Below, in pieces: positions 6,624 to 19,720 of a DNA stretch of 32,000 nt (the first letter of the stretch is position 1; every line of letters begins with the position of its first letter). A program made the position numbers and the translations under genes. The notes under the pieces are model-generated. The model saw only the letters and a list, made by a program, of their open reading frames with translations. It ran no database searches and had not been told where the DNA came from. The stretch is from Promethearchaeum syntrophicum (GTDB lineage Archaea > Asgardarchaeota > Lokiarchaeia > Sigyniarchaeales > Promethearchaeaceae), in NCBI RefSeq assembly GCF_008000775.2, contig NZ_CP042905.2, forward strand, positions 2,160,001-2,192,000, given 5' to 3'.

Positions 6624-7151
6624 ATGGCAGACTACGTATTGAAAATATGTTTACTCGGTGATGGAAATGTCGGAAAAACCTCTATCGTTTACCGATATAT
6701 TGAGAACCGTTTTAGTCGTGATTTTAAATCTACTCTTGGTGTAAATTTATTAAAGAAAAAAGTAATCTTAACTGAAGGAGAAAACGCTGGAAAGATCTGT
6801 TCCATCCAAATCTGGGATCTTGGGGGTCAAAACGCCTACAGAAAATTGCGTAAACTCTATTTGGAGGGATCTCAGGGAGCTTTAGTCGTTTTCGATGTCA
6901 CATCTCAGTCTAGTTTTGATCACCTGGATGATTGGATTGAATCACTTATAGAAATCCGTGGGGACAAAGTTCCGATGATTTTAATTGGAAATAAAATTGA
7001 TTTAGAAGCTAATCGGGTTATAAACGAAATGCAAGTGCAGAAATATGCGGACAAATATAATATGCCCATTAAATTTACGAGTGCTGCAACCGGTGAGAAA
7101 GTCGAAACTGCATTTATAGAATTGATCCAAAATATTATAGAAACAATCTAA
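6624..7151 (+). CDS. Rab-like small GTPase (Ras superfamily)
   Basis: G1 GDGNVGKT, switch I KSTLGV, G3 WDLGGQ, G4 GNKIDL, G5 TSAATG. Collinear with eukaryotic Rab over the whole length. GGAG RBS 7 nt upstream of the ATG. Confidence 0.9.
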   Translation: MADYVLKICLLGDGNVGKTSIVYRYIENRFSRDFKSTLGVNLLKKKVILTEGENAGKICSIQIWDLGGQNAYRKLRKLYLEGSQGALVVFDVTSQSSFDHLDDWIESLIEIRGDKVPMILIGNKIDLEANRVINEMQVQKYADKYNMPIKFTSAATGEKVETAFIELIQNIIETI

Positions 7152-7295
7152 TTGTTACAAATTTTTCTAATTATTTTCTTAAACGTTCGAGTTTATCCAG
7201 ATATACATTTTTTGGGATACATATTATCAAACTAAAAATTCTTAAGCGGAACAAACTAAATTTTATTTGTTGTAAGGTATTTAGATAGATGGAAC

Positions 7296-7305
7296 TTTTT
7301 TTTTT
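7296..7305 (+). terminator. oligo-T tract (T10) between the two GTPase genes; possible archaeal terminator
   Basis: T10 run within an imperfect GGAAC-T10/A7-TAAATTCC palindrome, about 145 nt after the first GTPase stop and 40 nt before the second start. Confidence 0.3.
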
Positions 7306-7344
7306 AAAAAAATAAATTCCACAAAATAATTAACGTGAAAAAAC

Positions 7345-7899
7345 ATGGCAGAAAATGAGTTCGCAAGCGATTTTATCTTCAAAATTTGCGTGATTGGTGA
7401 CGGCGCTACTGGAAAAACTTCTCTCATTAAAAGATTCACACAAGGATCTTTCAATAAAGATTATATTAAAACTCTTGGTGCGCAGTTTTCAAAATTCGAA
7501 AAAATTATGGAGATTGACGGAAAAGCCATTCGGGCGCGTCTCTTTTTCTGGGATATTGCAGGCCAATCAGAGTTTCGCTTCATGAGGCCGACCTTCTATA
7601 ACGGCGCAAAAGCGACCATTGTTGTCTTTGATTTAACTCGAAAAGAGACGTATGATAATATCCGGACATGGATTGATGATATCACTCAATATTGTGGAAA
7701 ATTACCTACTGTATGCTTTGCTAATAAAAGCGATTTAATAAATGAAGCAGAATTTGATGATAGCGATATAAAAAACCTTTCTAAGGAATTAGAATTCATG
7801 GAATATTATTTGACTTCTGCAAAAACGGGTAAACACGTTCAAGATGCTTTTAATGCAATCATTGATATATTAGTGAAGAAAGCTTTAGCAGAAGGATAA
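7345..7899 (+). CDS. Rab/Ras-like small GTPase (second paralogue)
   Basis: G1 GDGATGKT, switch I IKTLGAQF, G3 WDIAGQ, G4 ANKSDL, G5 TSAKTG. Confidence 0.9.
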   Translation: MAENEFASDFIFKICVIGDGATGKTSLIKRFTQGSFNKDYIKTLGAQFSKFEKIMEIDGKAIRARLFFWDIAGQSEFRFMRPTFYNGAKATIVVFDLTRKETYDNIRTWIDDITQYCGKLPTVCFANKSDLINEAEFDDSDIKNLSKELEFMEYYLTSAKTGKHVQDAFNAIIDILVKKALAEG

Positions 7900-7988
7900 C
7901 GCCTTAACAAAACTAGTTTTTGTTAAAGAAAATACATTTATAGTCAATTTATCTCGAAATTTATGAAAAAAAGGGGACAATAATTAAA

Positions 7989-8276
7989 ATGGGGTATCCT
8001 TTAATCTATTTTTTCTCAAGTCCATATTGTGCGCCTTGTAAAACTGTCGGAAAGATGCTTGAAGAAATAAATATCAGCCTTTTTGGTAATAAGCTCAAGA
8101 TAAAAAAGGTTGACATTGCTCAAGAATTTGAGTTAGCACAAAAATTTAAAATACTTAGTGTCCCCACTATTATAATTGGAGATCAAAGATTATCTGTGAT
8201 CATAGATAAAAATGAGTTGACTGACGCAATTTTGCAAGGATTCCTATCTTCGGTATCATACTCAGAAGATGAATAA
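7989..8276 (+). CDS. small thioredoxin/glutaredoxin-fold protein (CxxC)
   Basis: 95 aa. Active-site-like CAPC near the N-terminus and a cis-Pro region ILSVPTIIIG typical of the thioredoxin fold. Confidence 0.8.
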   Translation: MGYPLIYFFSSPYCAPCKTVGKMLEEINISLFGNKLKIKKVDIAQEFELAQKFKILSVPTIIIGDQRLSVIIDKNELTDAILQGFLSSVSYSEDE

Positions 8277-8360
8277 TAAATAAAAAGATATAAAAAAACT
8301 AAAAATAATATTAGAAAACGGAATGAAAGATAATAGAAAAAAAATGTTGAGGAATTACAA

Positions 8361-8846
8361 ATGAATCGTATTTTACTTGAACAAATGCTACATAAAATGA
8401 GATCTTTCCTGATAAAGGGGAAAAACATTGGAGATTTGAAAATTGGTGCTCTTTATGCCCTTGGGAATCAATTGGATGCCGTTTATTATTTCGTTGGTCA
8501 TGAATTGGGTTCTACAATAGAAACTGGAAGAGATCATATTGTTGATACTTCAATTTTGATTGAAACATTAAAGAATTTTTCAAAAAAATATCATATCGGT
8601 AATATGATTATAGACGAATACAATGATGAGCATATTACCTTTGATCTTGAGGATTGTCCCACATGTAAGGAAATTGAAGTACCATCCACTGAAATATCAC
8701 AAGGATTTTGCTCTTTTGAAGCGGGATTATTTGCCGGTCTAGTCGAGAAATTAACAGGAAAGCATTGTTTTGCCCAAGAATTAGAATGCAAACTCCAAAA
8801 TAAATCTCCAAATTGTAAATTTATGATTGTTATTCCTAAAGATTAG
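8361..8846 (+). CDS. V4R (4-vinyl reductase) domain protein
   Basis: C-terminal GFCSFEAGLFAGLVEKLTGKHCFAQELECKLQNKSPNCKFMIV matches the V4R signature (C.f.aG...G..e...g......E..C...G...C.F.i). GAGGA RBS upstream. Confidence 0.7.
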   Translation: MNRILLEQMLHKMRSFLIKGKNIGDLKIGALYALGNQLDAVYYFVGHELGSTIETGRDHIVDTSILIETLKNFSKKYHIGNMIIDEYNDEHITFDLEDCPTCKEIEVPSTEISQGFCSFEAGLFAGLVEKLTGKHCFAQELECKLQNKSPNCKFMIVIPKD

Positions 8847-8862
8847 GAGTAGGTAGAATAAA

Positions 8863-9111
8863 ATGAGTTCAGATGAAAATATAGTAGCCTATATATTATT
8901 AATTACCGATTCAGTAAATACTGAAGAGATATATAAGAAATTGAAATCAATAGAACAAGTTAAGGAAGTTCATATGATTTATGGGGATTATGATATTATT
9001 TTCAAGGTTGAAGTAAAGAATTTAGCGGAATTATCAACCTTTACCATGGATATACGGAAAAATTTCAATATTAAATCTTCATCAACATTAATAACTTTAG
9101 CCCAGAAATAA
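8863..9111 (+). CDS. stand-alone Lrp/AsnC-type ligand-binding (RAM) domain protein
   Basis: 82 aa. AYILLITD...VKEVHMIYGDYDIIFKVEVKNLAELSTF...SSSTLITL fits the AsnC_trans_reg beta-alpha-beta-beta-alpha-beta pattern without an HTH. It starts 16 nt after the V4R stop, with an AGGAG RBS. Confidence 0.7.
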   Translation: MSSDENIVAYILLITDSVNTEEIYKKLKSIEQVKEVHMIYGDYDIIFKVEVKNLAELSTFTMDIRKNFNIKSSSTLITLAQK

Positions 9112-9127
9112 AGGAAATTTTGGTTCC

Positions 9128-9769
9128 TCATTCTAAAATATAGTGAATCATAGATTTGTATTTTCCATTTTTCAAAGCAATTAACTGCTCTTTTTCCATT
9201 TCTTCGATATATTTCAAAAGATTTTCCTGGGAGAAATTAGAATAGGTTTCGATTTCTTCTAACGCTAAAGATCCGTGTCTTAATAATATAAAAAGAATTT
9301 TTTTCTTTGGGAAATCTGATTCATGCCTGATAAACCAATCCATTGATTGTCTTATATCAATTTCAGTATTTTTAAGGCTGTTAACTTCATTGGCTAATTT
9401 GTTTAAAACCGCCTCTCTGGCTTTGAAAACAGATTGACTGGTTTTGAATAATCTCTCGATCTCCTCTAAAAGGTCATCTCCAAAGTGTTTGGAAACCACA
9501 TCGTTAATTAGACATAAAATATCCTTGAAATCTTCCGCATCTTCAAATTTATTTAAGATTAAGACCGTAACCTTTTGTAGTTCTTCGTTCCCTAAAGATA
9601 ACCCATTGAAATCTTCTTCCTTAATATTCATAATTCCGGGATTAAACGAATGACTGATTTGTAGAAGTTGCACAAAATTCACCGGAATGTCAAGATCTTT
9701 AGGATATTTTAAAGATATTATCCCACCTTCGTATTCATCCCAGTCAATTATAAATATCCCTTCAGGCAT
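9128..9769 (-). CDS. longin-like N-terminal domain / coiled coil / C-terminal winged-helix protein (hypothetical)
   Basis: ORF 9128..9778 starts at a GTG that lies inside GGTGA, so the ATG at 9769 (GGTGA-N5-ATG) is preferred. The N-terminal ~100 aa show a beta-beta-alpha-beta-beta-beta-alpha pattern collinear with sigma-adaptin/longin. A heptad-like helix lies in the middle. The C-terminus KKKILFILLRHGSLALEEIE...LIALKNGKY is wHTH-like. Confidence 0.6.
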   Translation of the reverse strand: MPEGIFIIDWDEYEGGIISLKYPKDLDIPVNFVQLLQISHSFNPGIMNIKEEDFNGLSLGNEELQKVTVLILNKFEDAEDFKDILCLINDVVSKHFGDDLLEEIERLFKTSQSVFKAREAVLNKLANEVNSLKNTEIDIRQSMDWFIRHESDFPKKKILFILLRHGSLALEEIETYSNFSQENLLKYIEEMEKEQLIALKNGKYKSMIHYILE

Positions 9770-9978
9770 TTTGTTCACCGAAATTGTAAATAATTAATCC
9801 AATTTTTATTAAATGTATTAAATGTAAAAAAACCTAATAATATTTATATATGTAATTTTGGAAATTTTTCCATTTTTTTTTATCCAAATCTCCTTTGGGT
9901 AGTAAAATTGAATTTATACTAAGTAATTCATAAATTTAGAATTTGAAATTACAGAAATAACTATGTCGGAAAAACAAA

Positions 9979-10272
9979 ATGCCATTATATTATGTATATA
10001 TCCTAAAATGTGAGAACATTAAGAATGGAAATGTAAGTCTCTATACGGGATCAACTCAAGATTTAATGAAACGATTTGAACAACATCGAAAAGGTGTTGG
10101 TGGAGCAAAGTATACGAGAGGAAAAAAACTTGAATTGGTTTATTTTGAGACCCATTTAACAAGAAGTGACGTGATGAAGCGGGAATATGAAATAAAAAGC
10201 TACACTTCTTCAAAAAAATGGGAAATTGTAGATGAATTTCAAAAAAAAATGGAGGATTCGAAATCTAAATGA
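9979..10272 (+). CDS. GIY-YIG nuclease-domain protein (UPF0213/Slx1-like small stand-alone form)
   Basis: YYVYILKC...LYTGSTQDLMKRFEQHRKG...REYEIK carries the GIY..YIG, R..H and E elements of the GIY-YIG fold. Confidence 0.85.
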   Translation: MPLYYVYILKCENIKNGNVSLYTGSTQDLMKRFEQHRKGVGGAKYTRGKKLELVYFETHLTRSDVMKREYEIKSYTSSKKWEIVDEFQKKMEDSKSK

Positions 10273-11156
10273 GTTTAAATTTATTCTTAAACAACTTCAA
10301 AACCTCAAGATATTCAGTTCTAATTCTTTTAATTGGTCTCCCTGCATCGGGAAAAAGTGTAATGGCTCAAAAACTAAAGAGTGAGTTAACAAATAAGCAT
10401 GGATTGAATAAAGTTTACATAATTGACACTGATATTATCCGATTTCGTCTTTTTGGAGCAGATTTTTGCCACACTAATGAAAAATCTGTGGTAGAAGAAA
10501 AAAATAAAGAGGTTTCTGACAAATTAAATCCGGGAAACATTATAATAGTTGATGATCTTCATTATTTAACATCAATGCGACATTATTTCTACGATTTGTG
10601 CAAGAAAAAAGGTGCAATATACATTCCAATTTATCTATCCACACCCATGTCACAATGTAAAAAATGGAATAAAAAGCGTGGATTACCAATTCCTCATGAA
10701 ATTATTGAGGAAATTGCTGCTAAAATTGATATCCCGGGCAAGAAATACCAATGGGATAGAACCCAATTAAATTTTGACCTCACTTCACAAAAAATAGATG
10801 AAAATGTTGAAGAATCGCTTCAACATATTGAAGAAAAATTAAAAAACGAATTTAATGTTTCATCTAAGAATCAATTTACCTTTAAAAATCAGACTTTTAA
10901 TGACCAGAAAATTAAAGACAATTCCTCATTTGATAAGGAATCTAGGATTATTATACACAAAATAATTACAAAAGATTATTCAGATGAAATTTTAACAAAA
11001 ATCGGAAAATATATCAATTTTTCATCATCTAATTTTACAAAACAAATTTCTTCGAAAAGGAAAAAATATGTAAAATGGTTAATCGGTCAAAAATCTCCGC
11101 ATTTAACAATCGAAGAATTTATAACTTTTTTAACAGAAACAAATACAAAATATTAG
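10269..11156 (+). CDS. pstK: L-seryl-tRNA(Sec) kinase (PSTK)-like P-loop kinase
   Basis: P-loop GLPASGKS. IIVDDLHYLTSMRHYF, IPHEIIEEIAAKIDIPGKKYQWD and DKESRIIIHKII are collinear with the archaeal PSTK sequence as I remember it (VDDTNYYNSMRR, IPNEVI...FDEPGKKYKWD, DKETRKIV). The ATG overlaps the GIY-YIG stop (ATGA). Confidence 0.7.
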   Translation: MSLNLFLNNFKTSRYSVLILLIGLPASGKSVMAQKLKSELTNKHGLNKVYIIDTDIIRFRLFGADFCHTNEKSVVEEKNKEVSDKLNPGNIIIVDDLHYLTSMRHYFYDLCKKKGAIYIPIYLSTPMSQCKKWNKKRGLPIPHEIIEEIAAKIDIPGKKYQWDRTQLNFDLTSQKIDENVEESLQHIEEKLKNEFNVSSKNQFTFKNQTFNDQKIKDNSSFDKESRIIIHKIITKDYSDEILTKIGKYINFSSSNFTKQISSKRKKYVKWLIGQKSPHLTIEEFITFLTETNTKY

Positions 11157-11196
11157 ACAAAAAATTTTAATTCATAACCTCTTCTAAATTATTGAT

Positions 11197-13509
11197 ATGG
11201 CAATAGGTGATATGGCTCCAACTGACGATGAAAGGAAGATTAAGTCTCTAAGGGTTTCGGAAATAGCAAAAGGTTCTGCAGGAAGATTCATGTGCAGAAT
11301 GAATATTGATATAATTAAAGAATTAGAACTTAAACCTGGTGAAATTGTCGAGATCATTGGAAAACGGAATACTGCTGCGATTTTATTTCCTTCTTCAGAT
11401 AAATCGGATGAGATAATTCGGTTGGATGGATTAACAAGACGTAATGCTGGTGTAGCTATTGGAGAATATGTTAAAGTTCGAAAATGTTATTATTCAGTTG
11501 CGAATAAGGTAGTTCTGAGTTTTATCCAATCGGATCTAAAAATTTCTTCAGAAAACCAAATTAAATTAAATTTACTAAATAAACCCTTAAAAGAAGGGGA
11601 AATTATTAATGTTTCTGGCTCTAATTTAGCAAAGAAAGAACAAGCAGGACCTTACAAGGATTTAAAGGAGATGATGCCTTTTTTAAAATCTCCCACAGTT
11701 TCAATCGGGGAAGTCCAGTTTGCTGTAGTTGATACTGAGCCAAAGGGGATAGTTCAAATCCAAAATTCTACTAATATTGAAATTAAAGAGGGATTTGTGG
11801 CAATTAATACTATGGGTAATATCACCACATATGATGATATAGGGGGATTATCGGATGTAATACAAAGAGTACGGGAAATGATTGAATTACCTCTAAAACA
11901 TCCTGAACTCTTTCAACGCGTTAATATCGATCCTCCTAAAGGTGTTTTACTTCACGGTCCTCCTGGAACAGGAAAAACTTTATTGGCTAGAGCTGTTTCC
12001 CAAGAAGCAAATGCAACGTTTATCACCATAAACGGACCAGAAATTATGAGTAAGTTTTATGGTGCTTCTGAAGAACGTTTACGTAAAATCTTCAAAGAAG
12101 CAGAAACTAAAGCACCTTCAATAATTTTCATTGATGAACTCGATTCTATCGCTCCAAAAAGAGAAAATGTTTCTGGAGAAGTAGAAAGAAGGGTTGTAGC
12201 TCAATTATTAGCCCTTTTAGATGGACTTAAAGGGCGTGGGAGAATAATTGTAATTGGAGCGACTAATAGGATCAATTCTATTGATGAAGCATTAAGAAGA
12301 CCAGGACGATTTGATAGAGAAATTGAATTGCAGGTACCAGATGCTGATGGAAGAAAAGAAATTTTGCAGATACATACACGAGGGATGCCTTTAGATGATA
12401 CCGTAGATTTGGACGAATATGCAAGGCTCTCTCATGGATTTGTTGGGGCTGATTTGATGGCTGTTGCACGTGAAGGTGCGATGTCGTCTCTGAGAAAAAT
12501 TCTTCCTAAGATAGATTTAGATAAACCAATACCTACAGAAATTTTAGATAATTTAGTCATCAACGACGACGATTTCCAAAATGCATTGAGAATGGTTGAA
12601 CCAAGTGCTATGCGCGAAGTTTTAATTGAAATTCCAAACATAGCATGGGATGATGTTGGGGGTTTAAATGAAGTTAAGCAAGAATTACAAGAATCTATTG
12701 AATGGCCCTTAATTTATCCCCACTTATACAAAAAAGCGGGGATTCGTTCCGTAAATGGTGTTCTTCTATTTGGCCCACCTGGTTGTGGGAAAACTCTACT
12801 GGCAAAAGCAGTTGCAACTGAATCAGAAATAAACTTTTTGGCTATAAAAGGACCAGAAATCTTCTCAAAATGGGTAGGGGAAAGTGAAAAAGCCATAAGA
12901 GACATCTTCAGAAAAGCGAGACTCGCAGCGCCTTCTATTATTTATTTCGATGAGCTTGATGCCATTGCTGCCACTAGAGGCGGCGGTATGGGAAATATGA
13001 GCGGTTCTAATGTAGGTATGCAAGTTGTAAATCAAATTCTTGTAGAAATGGACGGTGTTGAGGATCGCAAGGGAGTAATAATTGTAGCTAGTACAAATCG
13101 TCCCGATATTCTTGATCCTGCTTTATTACGTCCAGGTCGTTTTGATCGCATAGTTTACGTTCCCTCTCCAGACGCGAAAGGTCGAAAGAAGATATTAGAG
13201 GTTCATACCAAAGATATGCCAATTTCTGAAGATGTGAAATTAAATTTTTCTGATTTTGCAGAGCAATCTGAGGGTTATAGTGGTGCAGACCTTGAGAACG
13301 TAGTACGTGAGGCAGGTATGCAAGCAATTCGTGAACAATTAGAAGATTTTAAAGAGGTACAATTATCTAATTTTGAGTTTGCTTTTAAAAAAATACCTCC
13401 TTCATTAACTCCAAAGTTAATTCAAAAATATAACGAGATTGCGGATAAGCTTTCTCAACAGAAAATACGTACAATTGCATCTCTAAAAGATCCAGGATTA
13501 TTTACGTGA
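11197..13509 (+). CDS. cdc48: CDC48/VCP/p97-type AAA+ ATPase (two AAA domains)
   Basis: N-domain followed by D1 ([16 protein letters not shown]) and D2 ([16 protein letters not shown]), each with an RPGRFDR second region of homology. Confidence 0.95.
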
Positions 13510-15629: not shown

Positions 15630-17027
15630 ATGCTAAATACTATGAAGAGAAAGTTAATCGATCTTATCGAACCATTTAAAATTAAAGTGATTGAACCCGT
15701 TAGATTAGTTTCAGAAGAAAGAAGAAAACAAGCTATTAAAGAAGCGGGATATAACACATTTTTACTATTATCTGAAGATGTTTTTATTGATCTCTTGACT
15801 GATTCGGGTACTTCTGCAATGTCCGACAACCAATGGGCTGGAATGATGCTCGGTGATGAGGCTTACGCTGGGTCTAAAAACTTTTATCATCTTGAGAAAG
15901 CTATTCAAGATGTATTAGGATATAAATATGTTACTCCAACCCACCAAGGGCGAGGAGCTGAACATTTGATGTCTCAAGCTTTAATTTCAGAAGGGCAAAT
16001 CGTTCCAAGAAATATGTATTTTACAACCTCAAAATTACATGTTAATATTGCAGGAGGAGTAATGCCAGATGTAATTATTGATGAAGCGCATGATCCTGAA
16101 AACGAATTTGAGTTTAAAGGAAATGTTGATTTATTAAAATTACAAAAGGTTATTGATGAAAATGGACCAGAAAAGATTGCTTATGTGAACGTTGAGATGA
16201 ATGTTAACATGGCTGGTGGTCAACCAGTCTCAATGGCTAATTTAAGAGCAGTAAAGAAATTATGTGATCAATATAAAATTAAAGTCATTTTTGACGCAAC
16301 ACGATCCAGTGAGAATGCATATTTTATAAAAACTCGGGAAAAAGAATATGCAGATGTTCCAATTATAGATATATTGAATGAAATGATGAGTTATTCTGAT
16401 GGATGTATTTATAGTTCAAAGAAAGATTGCTTAGTTAATATTGGTGGTTTTCTCGCGACTCATGATAAAGAGATATTTGAAAAAACTCGTAGTATGGTTG
16501 TAGTTTATGAGGGGCTTCATACATATGGTGGTATGGCTGGTAGAGATATGGAAGCAGTTGCACGAGGATTACGAGAAAGCACACAGGTATCGTATTTAAA
16601 ATACAGAACTAACCAAGTTAAATTATTAGGTGATTTACTCATTGAAGGAGGGGTTCCAATTGTTCGACCCCCAGGTGGTCATGCGATATTTCTTAATGCT
16701 TTGAAGTTTCTCCCTCATCTTACACGTGAACAGTGGCCTGCTCAAACATTATCTGCTGCAATATACGAAGCATCTGGAGTTAGAAGCATGGAACGAGGTG
16801 CAATTAGCAAAGGTCGGGATAAAGATGGAAACAATATATTCCCAAATTTGGAATTAGTTAGACTTACAATCCCAAGAAGGGTATATACTAACACTCATAT
16901 AGAATATGCCGCAGAATGTATAATAGATCTTTACAAAAGAAGACACGAAATTCCTGGATTGAAAATGGTGTTCGAACCAGAATATCTCAGATTCTTCCAA
17001 GCTACTTTTGAACAATTACCTTTATAA
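15630..17027 (+). CDS. tpl: beta-eliminating lyase, tyrosine phenol-lyase-like (TPL/tryptophanase family, PLP-dependent)
   Basis: DLLTDSGTSAMSDNQWAGMMLGDEAYAGSKNFYHLE, PTHQGRGAE, the PLP-lysine segment SSKKDCLVNIGGFL, and GVRSMERG...LTIPRRVYT. From memory these segments are closer to Citrobacter TPL than to E. coli TnaA. An alternative start exists at 15642. Confidence 0.88.
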   Translation: MLNTMKRKLIDLIEPFKIKVIEPVRLVSEERRKQAIKEAGYNTFLLLSEDVFIDLLTDSGTSAMSDNQWAGMMLGDEAYAGSKNFYHLEKAIQDVLGYKYVTPTHQGRGAEHLMSQALISEGQIVPRNMYFTTSKLHVNIAGGVMPDVIIDEAHDPENEFEFKGNVDLLKLQKVIDENGPEKIAYVNVEMNVNMAGGQPVSMANLRAVKKLCDQYKIKVIFDATRSSENAYFIKTREKEYADVPIIDILNEMMSYSDGCIYSSKKDCLVNIGGFLATHDKEIFEKTRSMVVVYEGLHTYGGMAGRDMEAVARGLRESTQVSYLKYRTNQVKLLGDLLIEGGVPIVRPPGGHAIFLNALKFLPHLTREQWPAQTLSAAIYEASGVRSMERGAISKGRDKDGNNIFPNLELVRLTIPRRVYTNTHIEYAAECIIDLYKRRHEIPGLKMVFEPEYLRFFQATFEQLPL

Positions 17028-17031
17028 AATC

Positions 17032-17043
17032 TTTTTTTTTTTT
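17032..17043 (+). terminator. oligo-T (T12) terminator after the lyase gene
   Basis: T12 run beginning 5 nt after the TAA at 17025..17027. Confidence 0.55.
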
Positions 17044-17195
17044 ATCTCTTACGATATCATTAAAGTGGGTTTTTCATCCCCGTTTCTTAAAATTTATAGG
17101 CAATTCAGTTAATATTGTCCTCAAGGAAAGGTGTTTTTTACATACTATTCATAACTTGAGTTTTAATTATATAAAAAAGAAACCAGTTGAAAATT

Positions 17196-17816
17196 ATGAA
17201 CATTGATAAATTTAATATATTAAGCGTAGGTGTAGGAGGACAAGGGGTAATCCGAGTAACTCAAATACTCGCTTCTGCTGCCCTACTAGACGATTATCAT
17301 GTGAGGACTGCTGAAACGCATGGTATGGCGCAACGAGGAGGTTCAGTTTCAGGTTATTTACGATTTGGTGAACATGTTGATGGTCCTTTAATTCCTGCGG
17401 GATTAGCAGATATTATAATTGCATTAGAACCTCTTGAAGCAGTTCGGAATATGAAATATGTAGGGAAAAAATCAATAATTTTACTTAACGATAAGCAAAT
17501 TTTACCACTTTCAATTTATCAATCAAAAAAGATTGTTTATCCAAAATTTGATGAGATACTAGCGAATTTAAAGAAGATAACCACTAATGTTTTTTTCATA
17601 AAAGCCACAGAATTAGCAGAAAAGGCAGGGAATGCTAAAACGTCAAATGTAATTATGTTAGGGGTAATCTTTGGAACAGGAATTTTACCTCTTTCAAAAG
17701 AAAATCTTGAAAAATCTATTTTAAAATATGTTCCTTCAAAAGCTATTGAAGTCAATAAAATAGCATTCAATATCGGAATAGAAGAAGGTCAAAAAATGAG
17801 GAGTGAATTAAATTGA
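17196..17816 (+). CDS. iorB: indolepyruvate:ferredoxin oxidoreductase subunit beta
   Basis: ILSVGVGGQGVIRVTQIL...ETHGMAQRGGSVSGYLRFG is the typical IorB/2-oxoacid:Fd oxidoreductase gamma-type domain. The ORF-track start at 17187 is a TTG, so the ATG at 17196 is preferred. Confidence 0.88.
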   Translation: MNIDKFNILSVGVGGQGVIRVTQILASAALLDDYHVRTAETHGMAQRGGSVSGYLRFGEHVDGPLIPAGLADIIIALEPLEAVRNMKYVGKKSIILLNDKQILPLSIYQSKKIVYPKFDEILANLKKITTNVFFIKATELAEKAGNAKTSNVIMLGVIFGTGILPLSKENLEKSILKYVPSKAIEVNKIAFNIGIEEGQKMRSELN

Positions 17817-19720
17817 GTGAAATTCCAGTAATAGCCCAGGATAATCCTGGAAAAAAAATAATTATGCTAGGTAATGAGGCGATTGCCAGAGGAATATTAG
17901 AAGCTGGAGTAGTCGTTGCGGCAGCTTATCCCGGAACCCCATCTTCTGAAATTATGCCAAGTTTAGCTAAATGCGTTCCTTCTCATCCAGAATTACGAAT
18001 GGAATGGAGTGTGAATGAAAAAGTAGCTTTTGAAATTGCTCATGCGGGATCAATGTCAAATGTGCGATCAATTGCTATAATGAAACATGTTGGGCTTAAT
18101 GTTGCATCCGATTCATTCATGACTGCTTGTTATCATGGTGTTCGTGGAGGACTAGTGGTGGTCTCAGCAGATGATCCAAGCCAATTTTCAAGTCAAAATG
18201 AACAAGACAATCGATATTTTGGTCTTCATGCCATTGTTCCTGTGTTTGAACCTTCAAATTCTCAAGAAGCGAAGGATATGCTCAAATATGCATTCCAATT
18301 CTCCGAAGAAAATAATACTCTTGTACTTTTTAGAACTACAACACGATTAAATCATGGTAGAGCTGATGTTGAATTTGGTGACATTTTAAAATTAAATCGG
18401 ACACCCGAATTTGATTGGGATCGCCAAAGATGGACATGTGTTCCTTCATCCACCAGACCTCAAAGAACCGAATTACTTCTTAGAATGAAGAAAATGGCTG
18501 AAGGAGCTGATGATTTTCCGTTTAATAAATTGACAATTAGTGATGAAAAAATTAATGGAAAACGCTATGGTTTCATTGCTACGGGAATTGCTCATGCTCA
18601 TATGATTGACTCACTAAATATTCATGGTATTAAAGATAAAGTCTCTATCTTAAAACTTGGATTGGTCAATCCTTTACCTCAGAAATTAATTAAAAAATTG
18701 ATGAATTCAGTTGATGAATTGTTAGTTGTTGAAGAATTGGAGCCAATTTTTGAAGAACAATGTAAAGCTTTCGCATATGATTGGAATTTAGGAGCTAAAG
18801 TTAGAATTCATGGAAAAGATTTCTTACCGCAGCAAGGTGAATTTAAACCTGAAACTTTGATTACACAGATTGCTAAATTCGTTGGATTAGACTATACTCC
18901 TCCCGAATCGGCAGCTTTAGATATATCAGTGCCTCCTAGATTACCACAAATGTGCCCTGCTTGTTCTCATCGTAGTATTTATTGGATAATGAAACAATAT
19001 TCAAAGAAACATAAAATGAAATTCATAAATAACAACGATATTGGATGTTATTCCTTAGGTCTTTATAAACCACTCGAAATGGTTGATACTATGTTATGCA
19101 TGGGCGCATCCATTGGTATGGCAAATGGGTTTGCCAAAATAATGCCAGATAATATATTAATTACGGCATTTCTAGGGGATTCCACATTCTTCCATTCAGG
19201 TGTAGCGCCTCTAATTAATGCAGTTTACAATAGAAACGATATGCTTATCATTATTTCTGATAATAGCTTTACAAGTATGACTGGTGGACAAGATAATCCT
19301 TCTAATGGAAAAACACTTACCAAAGAACCAGGAACAAAAATTCTTATTGAAGATGTTGTGAAAGGATGCGGTGTTCCCGAAGAAAATATTTGGGTGCATG
19401 AAGCTTATGATATGGAAGGATTGAAGGAAAAATTTGAGCAAGCGGCAAACGCTAAGGGCGTTCGGGTATTTATTCCTCGACATATGTGTTCTCTTCAAGA
19501 AATGCGCATTGTGAAGAAAAATAAAATTAAGCTTCCAGTCGTTAAAGTGAATCCTGATGTTTGCATAGGATGTCAAACCTGTGTTCGGCAATTTGGGTGC
19601 CCGGCAATTAATTTTGATTATAAAACTCTTAAATCTTCTATTGATCAAGAACAATGTCGAGGATGCAAAACATGTTTATATATTTGCCCCTCAAACGCTT
19701 TTTATGTTGTTGAAGAGTAG
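17813..19720 (+). CDS. iorA: indolepyruvate:ferredoxin oxidoreductase subunit alpha
   Basis: LGNEAIARGILEAGV N-terminus, TPP-binding GDSTFFHSG, and two C-terminal 4Fe-4S motifs (CIGCQTCVRQFGCP, CRGCKTCLYICP). The TTG start overlaps the iorB stop by 4 nt (TTGA). The next in-frame ATG (17864) would truncate the conserved N-terminus. Confidence 0.88.
   Translation: MSEIPVIAQDNPGKKIIMLGNEAIARGILEAGVVVAAAYPGTPSSEIMPSLAKCVPSHPELRMEWSVNEKVAFEIAHAGSMSNVRSIAIMKHVGLNVASDSFMTACYHGVRGGLVVVSADDPSQFSSQNEQDNRYFGLHAIVPVFEPSNSQEAKDMLKYAFQFSEENNTLVLFRTTTRLNHGRADVEFGDILKLNRTPEFDWDRQRWTCVPSSTRPQRTELLLRMKKMAEGADDFPFNKLTISDEKINGKRYGFIATGIAHAHMIDSLNIHGIKDKVSILKLGLVNPLPQKLIKKLMNSVDELLVVEELEPIFEEQCKAFAYDWNLGAKVRIHGKDFLPQQGEFKPETLITQIAKFVGLDYTPPESAALDISVPPRLPQMCPACSHRSIYWIMKQYSKKHKMKFINNNDIGCYSLGLYKPLEMVDTMLCMGASIGMANGFAKIMPDNILITAFLGDSTFFHSGVAPLINAVYNRNDMLIIISDNSFTSMTGGQDNPSNGKTLTKEPGTKILIEDVVKGCGVPEENIWVHEAYDMEGLKEKFEQAANAKGVRVFIPRHMCSLQEMRIVKKNKIKLPVVKVNPDVCIGCQTCVRQFGCPAINFDYKTLKSSIDQEQCRGCKTCLYICPSNAFYVVEE

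Follow-up and report, generated by a model that had tools for sequence, protein, structure and literature searches.

A conserved Lokiarchaeal gene cluster combining paired Rab-like GTPases with a thioredoxin and a stand-alone V4R protein

Two Rab-like GTPase genes, a thioredoxin (Trx) gene and a gene for a stand-alone V4R protein (GTPase-B, Trx, V4R and GTPase-A) are contiguous in about 80 Lokiarchaeal species. We give an about even chance to the reading that the four genes form a core cluster on which selection acts in Lokiarchaeia and in which V4R and Trx regulate the paired Rab-like GTPases. Its function would most likely be that of a thiol- or ligand-sensing regulator module for the two GTPases. 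No description of a GTPase–Trx–V4R–GTPase cluster was found in the searchable literature. In it, archaeal GTPases are paired with candidate regulators, which is rare and open to testing.

The window, that is, the whole stretch of 32,000 nucleotides that was analysed, comes from the genome of Promethearchaeum syntrophicum MK-D1, a cultured Asgard archaeon. Six genes of the window encode QEE16683–QEE16688. The open reading frames and gaps that the initial annotation had assigned between 6624 and 9769 were all confirmed, including the spacings of 84 nt between Trx and V4R, 16 nt between V4R and the RAM gene, and 16 nt between the RAM gene and a convergent gene. Its domain calls also hold throughout: two Ras/Rab-type GTPases, a CxPC thioredoxin, a V4R protein, a RAM protein and an N-terminal domain with longin-like order of strands and helices.

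GTPase-A (6624–7151, forward strand; QEE16683/WP_147663611) and GTPase-B (7345–7899, forward strand; QEE16684/WP_147663613), with which the conserved core begins, match the Pfam Ras family PF00071 at 1.9e-46 and 7e-41, respectively. They were claimed to be Rab-like paralogues and share 31% identity (E 9e-33). The closest solved relatives in the PDB are Rab27B, Rab11 and Rab21 for GTPase-A and Rab1B, Rab23 and Rab35 for GTPase-B. As the top PDB matches of both are eukaryotic Rabs throughout, the two proteins appear closer to Rabs than to Ras, Rho, Arf or Ran. The supplement of Tran et al. likewise counts both as Rab-like GTPases of MK-D1. GTPase-A possesses canonical G1–G5 motifs and the catalytic Gln; the conserved GTPase motifs are GxxxxGKT, the switch-I Thr, DxxGQ, NKxD and a SAK-like motif, and the switch I (TLGVNLLKK) and switch II (QIWDLGGQ) segments of GTPase-A show conservation of at least 95%. 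The C-terminal Cys prenylation motif is absent from both proteins, which end in ...IQNIIETI and ...VKKALAEG. With this Cys missing from the sequences, "Rab-like" rather than "Rab" is the accurate name.

Synteny was inspected in 80 GTDB species loci, with denominators that vary by gene; the breadth of the cluster, as seen, is one class, Lokiarchaeia. The Trx gene lies directly 5' of the V4R gene on the same strand in 79/80 loci, separated from it by a median of 57 nt. In 76/77 loci the gene directly 5' of Trx, again in the same orientation, encodes a B-type GTPase, and the median distance between them is 12 nt. The gene right after V4R encodes an A-type GTPase in 61/73 loci, and A-type orthologues adjoin V4R in 64/64 positional cases. 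Conserved synteny of GTPase and V4R genes, proposed earlier as a check, is therefore strong, and the two GTPase lineages keep fixed positions (72/74 and 64/64). The gene order is A-B-Trx-V4R in the clade to which the window belongs and B-Trx-V4R-A in the other clade. As the four genes are still contiguous in both, contiguity has outlasted rearrangement.

GTPase-B, Trx and V4R are spaced closely enough for co-transcription in most genomes. In the window, oligo-T runs follow the stop codon of GTPase-A, and a small hairpin with T5 follows GTPase-B. These signals suggest that the GTPases may be transcribed separately from Trx-V4R in MK-D1. No oligo-T runs were found in the window between Trx, V4R and the RAM gene. 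The latter (8863–9111, forward strand; QEE16687) encodes a stand-alone RAM (Lrp/AsnC ligand-binding) domain, matching PF01037 at 1.2e-14, and the domain search detected no HTH in it. The gene was found in 10/73 loci overall and in 0/66 loci of the other clade. Because it is confined to the window-type clade, the RAM protein is a lineage-specific accessory rather than the part of a GTPase-regulatory system that had been suggested; it appears to be a clade-specific add-on, presumably co-transcribed with V4R in MK-D1.

The Trx gene (7989–8276, forward strand; QEE16685) encodes a small protein of thioredoxin fold whose active site reads CAPC. It matches PF00085 at 8.4e-10 with 39 bits (cut-off 23.5), and both the CxPC motif and the cis-Pro loop (S-V-P-T) are at least 95% conserved among 80 orthologues. 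Although the initial annotation had treated Trx as peripheral, it is the tightest-linked partner of V4R.

The V4R protein (8361–8846, forward strand; QEE16686/WP_147663616, DSAG12_02516) matches PF02830 with 31.3 bits, barely above the cut-off of 31, and this domain is precomputed in most members of its family. Further matches are DUF2507 and the C-terminal half of NCBIfam MsvR (NF053755; 2.3e-11, 43.9 bits), where the alignment covers only model positions 119–236, the V4R half. As an MsvR equivalog, a full-length wHTH plus V4R protein, would have to reach 220 bits, this assignment was rejected. The AlphaFold2 model (pLDDT 91.8) was matched by Foldseek to PoxR, MopR, Bet3 and MJ1460 at 3e-6 to 1e-5, so the V4R/Bet3 fold claimed at the outset is upheld at the level of the model, with E about 1e-6. 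The match to 1sz7 is at 4.3e-6, and Bet3/TRAPPC3 chains as a group reach E about 4e-6 with TM 0.59–0.67, which is no better than the match to sensor V4R domains.

An orthologue alignment showed that residues C117, E140, C143 and C152 of the V4R protein are invariant and C136 nearly so. The spacing of C117/E140/C143/C152 is 23/3/9, compared with 23/3/8 (XylR numbering) for the zinc site of PoxR/MopR/DmpR, and the four residues fit helix 118–132 and strands 137–142 and 152–157 of the model, in keeping with a structural site that takes one Cys from a helix and Glu/Cys/Cys from a beta-hairpin. The protein is thus predicted to carry a C-E-C-C zinc site like that found in sensor V4R domains. As a point against the proposed regulator module, the other clade does not conserve the Loki-type CxxC at residues 101/104. 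By sequence, the Bet3-like assignment fails: no TRAPP Pfam family matches at E<=1, MJ1460 is the only solved sequence matched by the V4R family profile in the PDB, and the Thor-labelled orthologue gives no match at E<=10 to the crystallised Thor "TRAPPC3" 7YH3. The V4R protein therefore looks like the classical zinc-site sensor type, nearest to MJ1460 and MsvR and not to Bet3/TRAPPC3. An MK-D1 protein closer to TRAPPC3, WP_147663132.1, is encoded elsewhere in the genome (PMC10933270).

A possible mechanism can be drawn for the core cluster. Asgard V4R/TRAPPC3 proteins were proposed to be dimer-forming ligand binders (PMC10933270), and the V4R protein is probably dimeric, as are other V4R/Bet3-fold proteins. 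It would be the sensory or regulatory partner of both GTPases, acting as an exchange factor, a GAP platform or an effector. Either a small hydrophobic ligand that it binds or its cysteines, or the two together, might determine its state. The cysteines of MsvR are oxidised by H2O2 and then re-reduced by the thioredoxin system (PMC7278568); the dedicated Trx could likewise reduce or gate the V4R cysteines, as that system does for MsvR in methanogens. A redox or metabolite signal would thus be coupled to the GTPase switch pair. On the other hand, the conserved V4R cysteines may form no redox switch and serve only to hold zinc as part of the structure.

The foremost alternative, which we regard as unlikely, is that Trx and V4R constitute a split MsvR-like redox regulator, a thiol switch controlling transcription via the longin-wHTH protein described below or another factor, with the GTPases as mere long-standing neighbours. 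MsvR is itself a wHTH plus V4R redox regulator reduced by thioredoxin, its V4R half is matched, Trx-V4R is the tightest pair of the cluster, a wHTH protein is encoded nearby, and terminator-like T-runs part the GTPases from Trx-V4R in the window. However, an unrelated gene would not be expected as close to Trx as GTPase-B is (median 12 nt), GTPase-A adjoins the trio even after rearrangement, and the longin-wHTH gene shows the looser linkage.

The surroundings of the cluster served as a control. Among 26 window ORFs, recurrence in distant loci was seen only for those from 6624 to 13509, and flanking genes scored zero. In 66 distant loci, GIY-YIG (9979–10272, forward strand) recurred 48 times, the KTI12/PSTK-like kinase (10269–11156, forward strand) 47 times and Cdc48 (11197–13509, forward strand) 45 times, each identified by a Pfam/NCBIfam match, and genes beyond 13509 recurred in none. 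Mean distances of GTPase-B, Trx and V4R (0.26, 0.29 and 0.29) are near that of Cdc48 (0.21), and all four core proteins are strongly constrained. Tight synteny within the cluster, set against its loss in the flanking genes, supports a functional link among GTPase-B, Trx, V4R and GTPase-A.

A long-lived neighbourhood alone is no proof of shared function, since TBP, Cdc48 and KTI12, which are unrelated housekeeping genes, share the conserved block. The whole of 6624 to 13509 might then be an ancestral Lokiarchaeal neighbourhood of functionally unrelated members kept by these essential genes. This explanation ranks next and is improbable in our estimate: synteny falls to zero just outside the block at a Cdc48 identity of 57–60%, the four core genes stay contiguous through reordering, and the short same-strand gaps within the core point to an operon, not to passive adjacency. 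In its favour are the lack of any plausible tie between the housekeeping genes and GTPase signalling, the mirror-tree co-evolution test, which did not discriminate and gave no specific signal, and the breadth of a single class.

The convergent gene (9128–9769, reverse strand; QEE16688/WP_147663620, DSAG12_02518) encodes a protein of 213 aa (AlphaFold2 pLDDT 86.9), for which the orthologue alignment favours an ATG start at 9769 over a GTG at 9778. The predicted beta-beta-alpha-beta-beta-beta-alpha N-terminus was recovered by DSSP on the AlphaFold2 model as E2-9, E17-22, H30-42, E46-50, E55-61, E66-72 and H78-94, with the next helix beginning at residue 98. This is the longin topology (beta2-alpha-beta3-alpha2, without an N-terminal helix) as defined in PMC10933270. 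Foldseek matched the domain to roadblock, LAMTOR, COP-zeta, AP-sigma and TRAPPII small chains of 144–146 residues; the longin fold is thus backed by strand and helix order and by a probability of about 1, but weakly by E-values of only about 1e-2. None of 33 members matched the longin, sedlin, sybindin or roadblock Pfam families at E<=10, and remote homologues of the N-domain carry no Pfam annotation across it. In these relatives the N-domain either stands alone or is joined to a wHTH or TackOD1 output domain; in no case is it joined to a GTPase.

The remainder of the protein, unmentioned in the initial annotation, consists of a 50-residue helix (98–149) and a C-terminal winged HTH (154–206). 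Across members, the C-terminus matches MarR_2 (5.8e-6) and TrmB (4.7e-5), and also HTH_5, HTH_24 and HTH_Crp_2, and the AlphaFold2 model bears out the winged-helix fold. The top whole-chain Foldseek matches are CRP/FNR and CodY at E about 1e-3. The architecture looks like a putative dimeric one-component transcription factor with a MarR/TrmB-type wHTH behind an input domain. It would act as a separately transcribed, probably dimeric DNA-binding regulator, and one may speculate that the longin-like input domain could receive a GTPase.

The longin-wHTH gene is linked to the cluster less tightly than the core genes are. It lies on the opposite strand within about 9 kb in 44/48 loci with enough sequence, which agrees moderately with the co-location claimed earlier, but TBP and acylphosphatase genes stand between it and the cluster in 45/57 genomes. 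On its other side, the divergent arrangement with GIY-YIG is kept in 53 loci with a median length of 221 nt. The corresponding region of the window (9770–9978; 209 nt, 19% GC) is a candidate promoter/operator region, although no convincing shared operator motif was found in the longin-wHTH/GIY-YIG intergenic regions. GIY-YIG, the KTI12/PSTK-like kinase and Cdc48 are probably conserved neighbours of the longin-wHTH gene and not members of the GTPase module.

The initial annotation had proposed a candidate GTPase-regulator module that contains both TRAPP-type folds; in a TRAPP-like model of this kind, V4R and the longin-like protein would assemble into a primordial complex serving as exchange factor for the neighbouring Rab-like GTPases. 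The conserved cluster supports the proposal in part; the TRAPP reading is the least probable of the explanations considered here, even though both folds are confidently predicted, the V4R model matches Bet3/TRAPPC3 chains, the longin-like domain matches TRAPPII chains besides other longin/roadblock proteins, its gene is usually close by, and longin and TRAPPC3 domains are fused in one Heimdall protein (PMC10933270). Against it stand the sensor-type V4R sequence, which falls with MJ1460, MsvR and Pfam V4R, the separate MK-D1 protein nearer TRAPPC3, the weak longin matches, the fusion of the longin-like domain to a coiled coil and a DNA-binding-type wHTH, its relatives with output domains, the clade-limited RAM gene, and the looser linkage of the opposite-strand longin gene, which is missing near the cluster in loci L012–L014, L017 and L032.

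Of the known systems, MsvR with its thioredoxin system shares with the core a cysteine-rich V4R domain whose cysteines thioredoxin reduces, comparable to the dedicated Trx gene beside the window V4R. Unlike MsvR, the window V4R is stand-alone without an HTH and is set between two Rab-like GTPase genes, an arrangement not known for MsvR. The sensor V4R domains of PoxR/MopR/DmpR/XylR and archaeal MJ1460 have the same fold (Foldseek 3e-6 to 1e-5) and the C...E..C...C zinc-site pattern in common with the window V4R. The bacterial domains are N-terminal modules of phenolic-binding sigma-54 activators, whereas the genomic partners here are GTPases and thioredoxin.

The eukaryotic TRAPP core, a Rab GEF, is built from Bet3-family and longin-fold subunits. 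The window resembles it, as judged from genes and models, in a V4R/Bet3-type fold beside Rab-like GTPases with a longin-like fold nearby. It differs in that the V4R protein has no sequence-level relationship to Bet3 or the Asgard "TRAPPC3" 7YH3 and that the longin-like domain belongs to a wHTH protein. The predicted zinc site is a further difference, as mouse TRAPPC3 has a hydrogen bond instead (Tran et al., PMC10933270).

MglA/MglB and other prokaryotic operons of small GTPases with roadblock/longin proteins also place Ras-superfamily GTPases beside small non-enzymatic regulator-type proteins, and a roadblock/longin-superfamily domain occurs near the window GTPases too. The Streptomyces conservon is among such operons. 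In contrast, the window GTPases, which resemble Rabs and not MglA, have Trx and V4R as immediate partners in place of a roadblock protein, and the longin-like domain here forms part of a wHTH protein. The 213-aa protein itself is reminiscent of the one-component factors CRP/FNR and CodY, with an N-terminal alpha/beta sensor, a long dimerisation helix and a C-terminal wHTH. The likeness is an analogy of architecture only, as its sensor is longin/roadblock-like and not a cNMP-binding barrel or GAF domain.

The window derives from Promethearchaeum syntrophicum MK-D1. The convergent 213-aa protein encoded at 9128-9769 (-), hereafter longin-wHTH, matches DSAG12_02518 at 100% identity; QEE16683-QEE16688 are the six genes for the two GTPases, a thioredoxin (Trx), V4R, RAM and longin-wHTH. 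ORFs recomputed in the window agree with the positions and gaps given in the initial annotation. Both GTPase-A (6624-7151, +) and GTPase-B (7345-7899, +) are Ras-family proteins (Pfam PF00071 at 1.9e-46 and 7e-41, respectively) and share 31% identity. The closest solved structures are eukaryotic Rab27B/11/21 for GTPase-A and Rab1B/23/35 for GTPase-B, and the crystallised Thor-Rab does not score above eukaryotic Rabs for either. As neither carries a C-terminal cysteine, the label "Rab-like" is right and "Rab" is wrong. The switch regions are nearly invariant in both families. In GTPase-B the G4 motif lies in an unusual context, F-A-N-K-S-D. The supplementary alignment of Tran et al. (2024; PMC10933270) includes the MK-D1 protein WP_147664140.1 with IFANKVDL and flanks similar to those of GTPase-B, and the G4 context common to the two sequences suggests a close GTPase-B paralogue elsewhere in the MK-D1 genome.

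Trx (7989-8276, +) encodes a thioredoxin of 95 aa whose active site reads CAPC; across the family, conservation reaches at least 95% at both the CxPC motif and the cis-Pro loop. The V4R protein (8361-8846, +) has 161 aa, and RAM (8863-9111, +) encodes an 82-aa RAM-only protein. Downstream of GTPase-A the window has oligo-T runs, and downstream of GTPase-B a hairpin with T5. No such runs or hairpin are found between Trx, V4R and RAM; these three genes therefore probably form a single transcript in the window.

Through the V4R family we gathered 80 loci from GTDB species genomes (handles L001-L080) and annotated these by probing with the proteins of the window. Trx lies immediately 5' of V4R on the same strand in 79 of the 80 loci (median gap 57 nt). 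A GTPase lies immediately 5' of Trx, also on the same strand, in 76/77 loci at a median gap of 12 nt, so that GTPase-B and Trx are only ~12 nt apart in most other genomes, unlike in the window; this GTPase is B-type in 72/74. The first recognised gene after V4R is an A-type GTPase in 61/73 loci, all GTPases found 3' of V4R are A-type (64/64), and RAM stands after V4R in place of GTPase-A in 10/73, limited to the window-type clade. The gene order is A-B-Trx-V4R in the window-type clade versus B-Trx-V4R-A in the other clade; the contiguity of GTPase-A, GTPase-B, Trx and V4R has survived a rearrangement.

The longin-wHTH gene was found, always on the opposite strand, in 44 of the 48 loci whose downstream sequence spans 9 kb or more, at a median distance of 2.4 kb; it was not found near the cluster in L012-L014, L017 and L032. 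Of the 57 loci with both V4R and longin-wHTH, 45 have TBP, acylphosphatase and a small ORF between the two, which indicates that the 16-nt proximity to the longin-wHTH gene in the window is derived. Between GTPase-A and longin-wHTH the larger clade carries three genes (L062:11391-12979): one for a TBP extended at its N-terminus by an acidic stretch, a conserved ORF of 112 aa, and one for an acylphosphatase, which in L062 overlaps the longin-wHTH gene. None of these three genes is present in the window.

As a control, all 26 window ORFs were used as probes against the 66 distant loci. Recurrence there is limited to genes within 6624-13509, namely the GTPases, Trx, V4R, longin-wHTH, GIY-YIG, KTI12 and Cdc48, with zero recurrence of the flanking window genes and RAM in these loci. 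Mean distances of GTPase-B, Trx and V4R (0.26-0.29) are near that of Cdc48 (0.21). In a mirror-tree analysis of 36 loci with Cdc48 as control, the families all intercorrelate, KTI12 and GIY-YIG included, and GTPase-A correlates with none. The four-gene GTPase/Trx/V4R cluster is under selection, and it occurs in ~80 species of Lokiarchaeia, among which are the two strains in culture, MK-D1 and L. ossiferum.

The 80 loci split deeply into one clade of 14 and one of 66, with between-clade identities of 42-46% for V4R and 57-60% for Cdc48; the 66-locus clade is homogeneous (median Cdc48 distance 0.17). Nine MAGs of the 66-locus clade labelled Thor-, Hermod- or Hodarchaeota (L025, L033, L035, L050, L052, L065, L069, L072 and L080) come from a single submission (JBHL*). 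Since their V4R and Cdc48 cluster tightly with those of Loki-labelled MAGs, the taxonomic labels look unreliable, and an "Asgard-wide" synteny read from them was withdrawn. MK-D1 belongs to the NCBI Promethearchaeota/Promethearchaeia, a single phylum in the Asgard kingdom Promethearchaeati, which we take to be the renamed Lokiarchaeota/Lokiarchaeia. Conservation of the cluster across Lokiarchaeia is supported.

Several features of the flanking DNA were also recorded. The genes for GIY-YIG (9979-10272, +) and a KTI12/PSTK-like kinase (10269-11156, +) share 4 nt (10269-10272) and, with Cdc48 (11197-13509, +), form a unit kept in both Lokiarchaeal clades, always divergent from the longin-wHTH gene. 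A search of the longin-wHTH/GIY-YIG intergenic region for operators or palindromes returned A/T-rich k-mers only, with one motif common to two related genomes. In L023 this region (L023:13511-13754) holds a direct duplication of ~140 bp, whose repeat unit (…TTATTTACTTAATTAATCAATTATGATATCG…TTTGACCGCAAG…) is single copy in the L062 intergenic region 5' of GIY-YIG. A further Rab-like GTPase pair lies on the opposite strand ~1.3-3 kb downstream of Cdc48 in several genomes of the larger clade (L021, L030, L037, L045, L062, L066, L068 and L076); as comparison of its members with GTPase-A or GTPase-B gives a -log10(E) of just ~30-34, they are paralogues distinct from these two. On the ENA contig of L003 (1556-5094), the genes for Cdc48, KTI12, GIY-YIG, Trx and a single GTPase each fall into two ORFs, splits that look like assembly frameshift errors, not biology. 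Elsewhere in the window, 15630-19720 encodes a beta-eliminating lyase of the tryptophanase/tyrosine phenol-lyase type followed by 2-oxoacid:ferredoxin oxidoreductase subunits (POR gamma, then a fused TPP/ferredoxin subunit), which fits amino-acid fermentation with no tie to the GTPase cluster, and 624-1466 encodes a 280-aa protein matching the overlapping families DUF6920 (8e-80) and DUF6544 (4e-77).

The AlphaFold2 model of longin-wHTH (pLDDT 86.9, 33 family members) reproduces exactly, in residues 1-94, the beta-beta-alpha-beta-beta-beta-alpha order predicted for its N-terminus. This is the longin order, which is defined as lacking an N-terminal helix and having extra C-terminal helices (PMC10933270), and it is followed by a 50-residue helix and a winged helix-turn-helix. 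Foldseek matches the N-domain to dynein LC7/roadblock, LAMTOR, COP-zeta1, AP sigma, 144-146-residue TRAPPII chains and a GATOR1 chain with probability ~1, but with E ~1e-2 and target-normalised TM of 0.41-0.53. No family member matches a longin or roadblock Pfam model, and the N-domain is longin/roadblock-like by predicted fold only. Across members the C-terminus matches MarR_2, TrmB, HTH_5, HTH_24 and Crp-type HTH models, and the whole chain matches CRP/FNR, CodY and PF0095, all of which share its sensor-helix-wHTH layout. A profile of the N-domain alone retrieved 68 proteins among 1.84 billion representatives. The remote relatives are stand-alone (~120 aa) or carry the N-domain ahead of wHTH domains, helical repeats or TackOD1, which is an output domain of archaeal signalling. 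Fusion of the longin-like domain to GTPases was rejected, as none of the 68 contains a GTPase domain, and the N-domain thus behaves as a one-component-type input module. The likeliest reading of longin-wHTH is a dimeric regulator with a transcript of its own; a role as GTPase-responsive output would be attractive but is unsupported.

For V4R, an AlphaFold2 model (pLDDT 91.8, 45-sequence family alignment) fits, by Foldseek, equally well the sensor domains of PoxR (3e-6), MopR and DmpR, MJ1460, YslB and Bet3/TRAPPC3 chains, among them the Thorarchaeota "TRAPPC3" 7YH3. The V4R/Bet3 fold assignment of the initial annotation therefore stands. Kinship to Bet3/TRAPP did not hold at the sequence level: Pfam returns V4R and DUF2507 without any TRAPP family, the V4R half of MsvR is matched at 2.3e-11 (NCBIfam), and MJ1460 is the sole PDB sequence matched by the family profile. 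A search with the Thor-labelled V4R orthologue leaves 7YH3 unmatched at a cut-off as lax as E<=10, and orthology to the crystallised Thor-TRAPPC3 was rejected. In the family C117, E140, C143 and C152 are invariant and C136 nearly so; the spacing is 23/3/9, with C117 beginning helix 118-132 and E140, C143 and C152 on a beta-hairpin. In residues, spacing and placement this predicted site reproduces the structural zinc site of PoxR, MopR and DmpR (C149/E172/C175/C183 in XylR numbering; bioRxiv 10.1101/2021.01.17.427014). Tran et al. described two MK-D1 V4R-fold proteins, TRAPPC3-like WP_147663132.1 and PoxR-like WP_147661794.1 (PMC10933270). The window V4R (WP_147663616.1) is neither; it is a third MK-D1 paralogue, unmentioned in that paper.

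Asgard archaea have dozens of GTPases resembling Rab, Rag or Arf, and to our knowledge a regulator can be assigned to hardly any of them. The cluster pairs two specific Rab-like GTPases with two specific small partners, a V4R paralogue and a thioredoxin, and as four small soluble proteins it makes bench-testable whether a V4R/Bet3 fold contacted Rab-like GTPases before eukaryotes. Its parts are of known kinds, and earlier work has described Rab-like GTPases, V4R/TRAPPC3-fold proteins and longin domains from Asgard archaea. According to Tran et al. (2024; PMC10933270), the GTPase genes of MK-D1 do not as a rule share an operon with genes for roadblock, longin or TRAPPC3 proteins, and the cluster is an exception to that statement. 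Our literature search, with most subscription journals outside its scope, found no earlier description of a conserved GTPase-Trx-V4R-GTPase cluster; the neighbourhood is not described in the sole related paper found, that of Tran et al. (PMC10933270).

Whether the cluster is a sensor/regulator module we consider an evenly balanced question. V4R would serve the two GTPases as a sensory or regulatory partner, working as exchange factor, GAP platform or effector, and the dedicated Trx would act on V4R cysteines. Such a Trx link, if true, would bring a redox input into archaeal GTPase signalling, for which we know of no earlier description. It is improbable, in our estimate, that a Trx-gated V4R (Bet3-fold) dimer works directly on the switch regions of both GTPases as exchange factor or GAP platform while longin-wHTH reads the GTPase state as transcription, the whole being a pre-eukaryotic, redox-gated TRAPP-type forerunner; were it so, cultured Asgard archaea would hold a redox-gated functional precursor of TRAPP-type Rab regulation. 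Asgard V4R/TRAPPC3 proteins have been argued to be ligand-binding dimers (Tran et al., PMC10933270). For the putative action of Trx on V4R, a precedent by analogy is MsvR, which combines wHTH and V4R domains: H2O2 oxidises the cysteines of this regulator, and the thioredoxin system returns them to the reduced state (PMC7278568).
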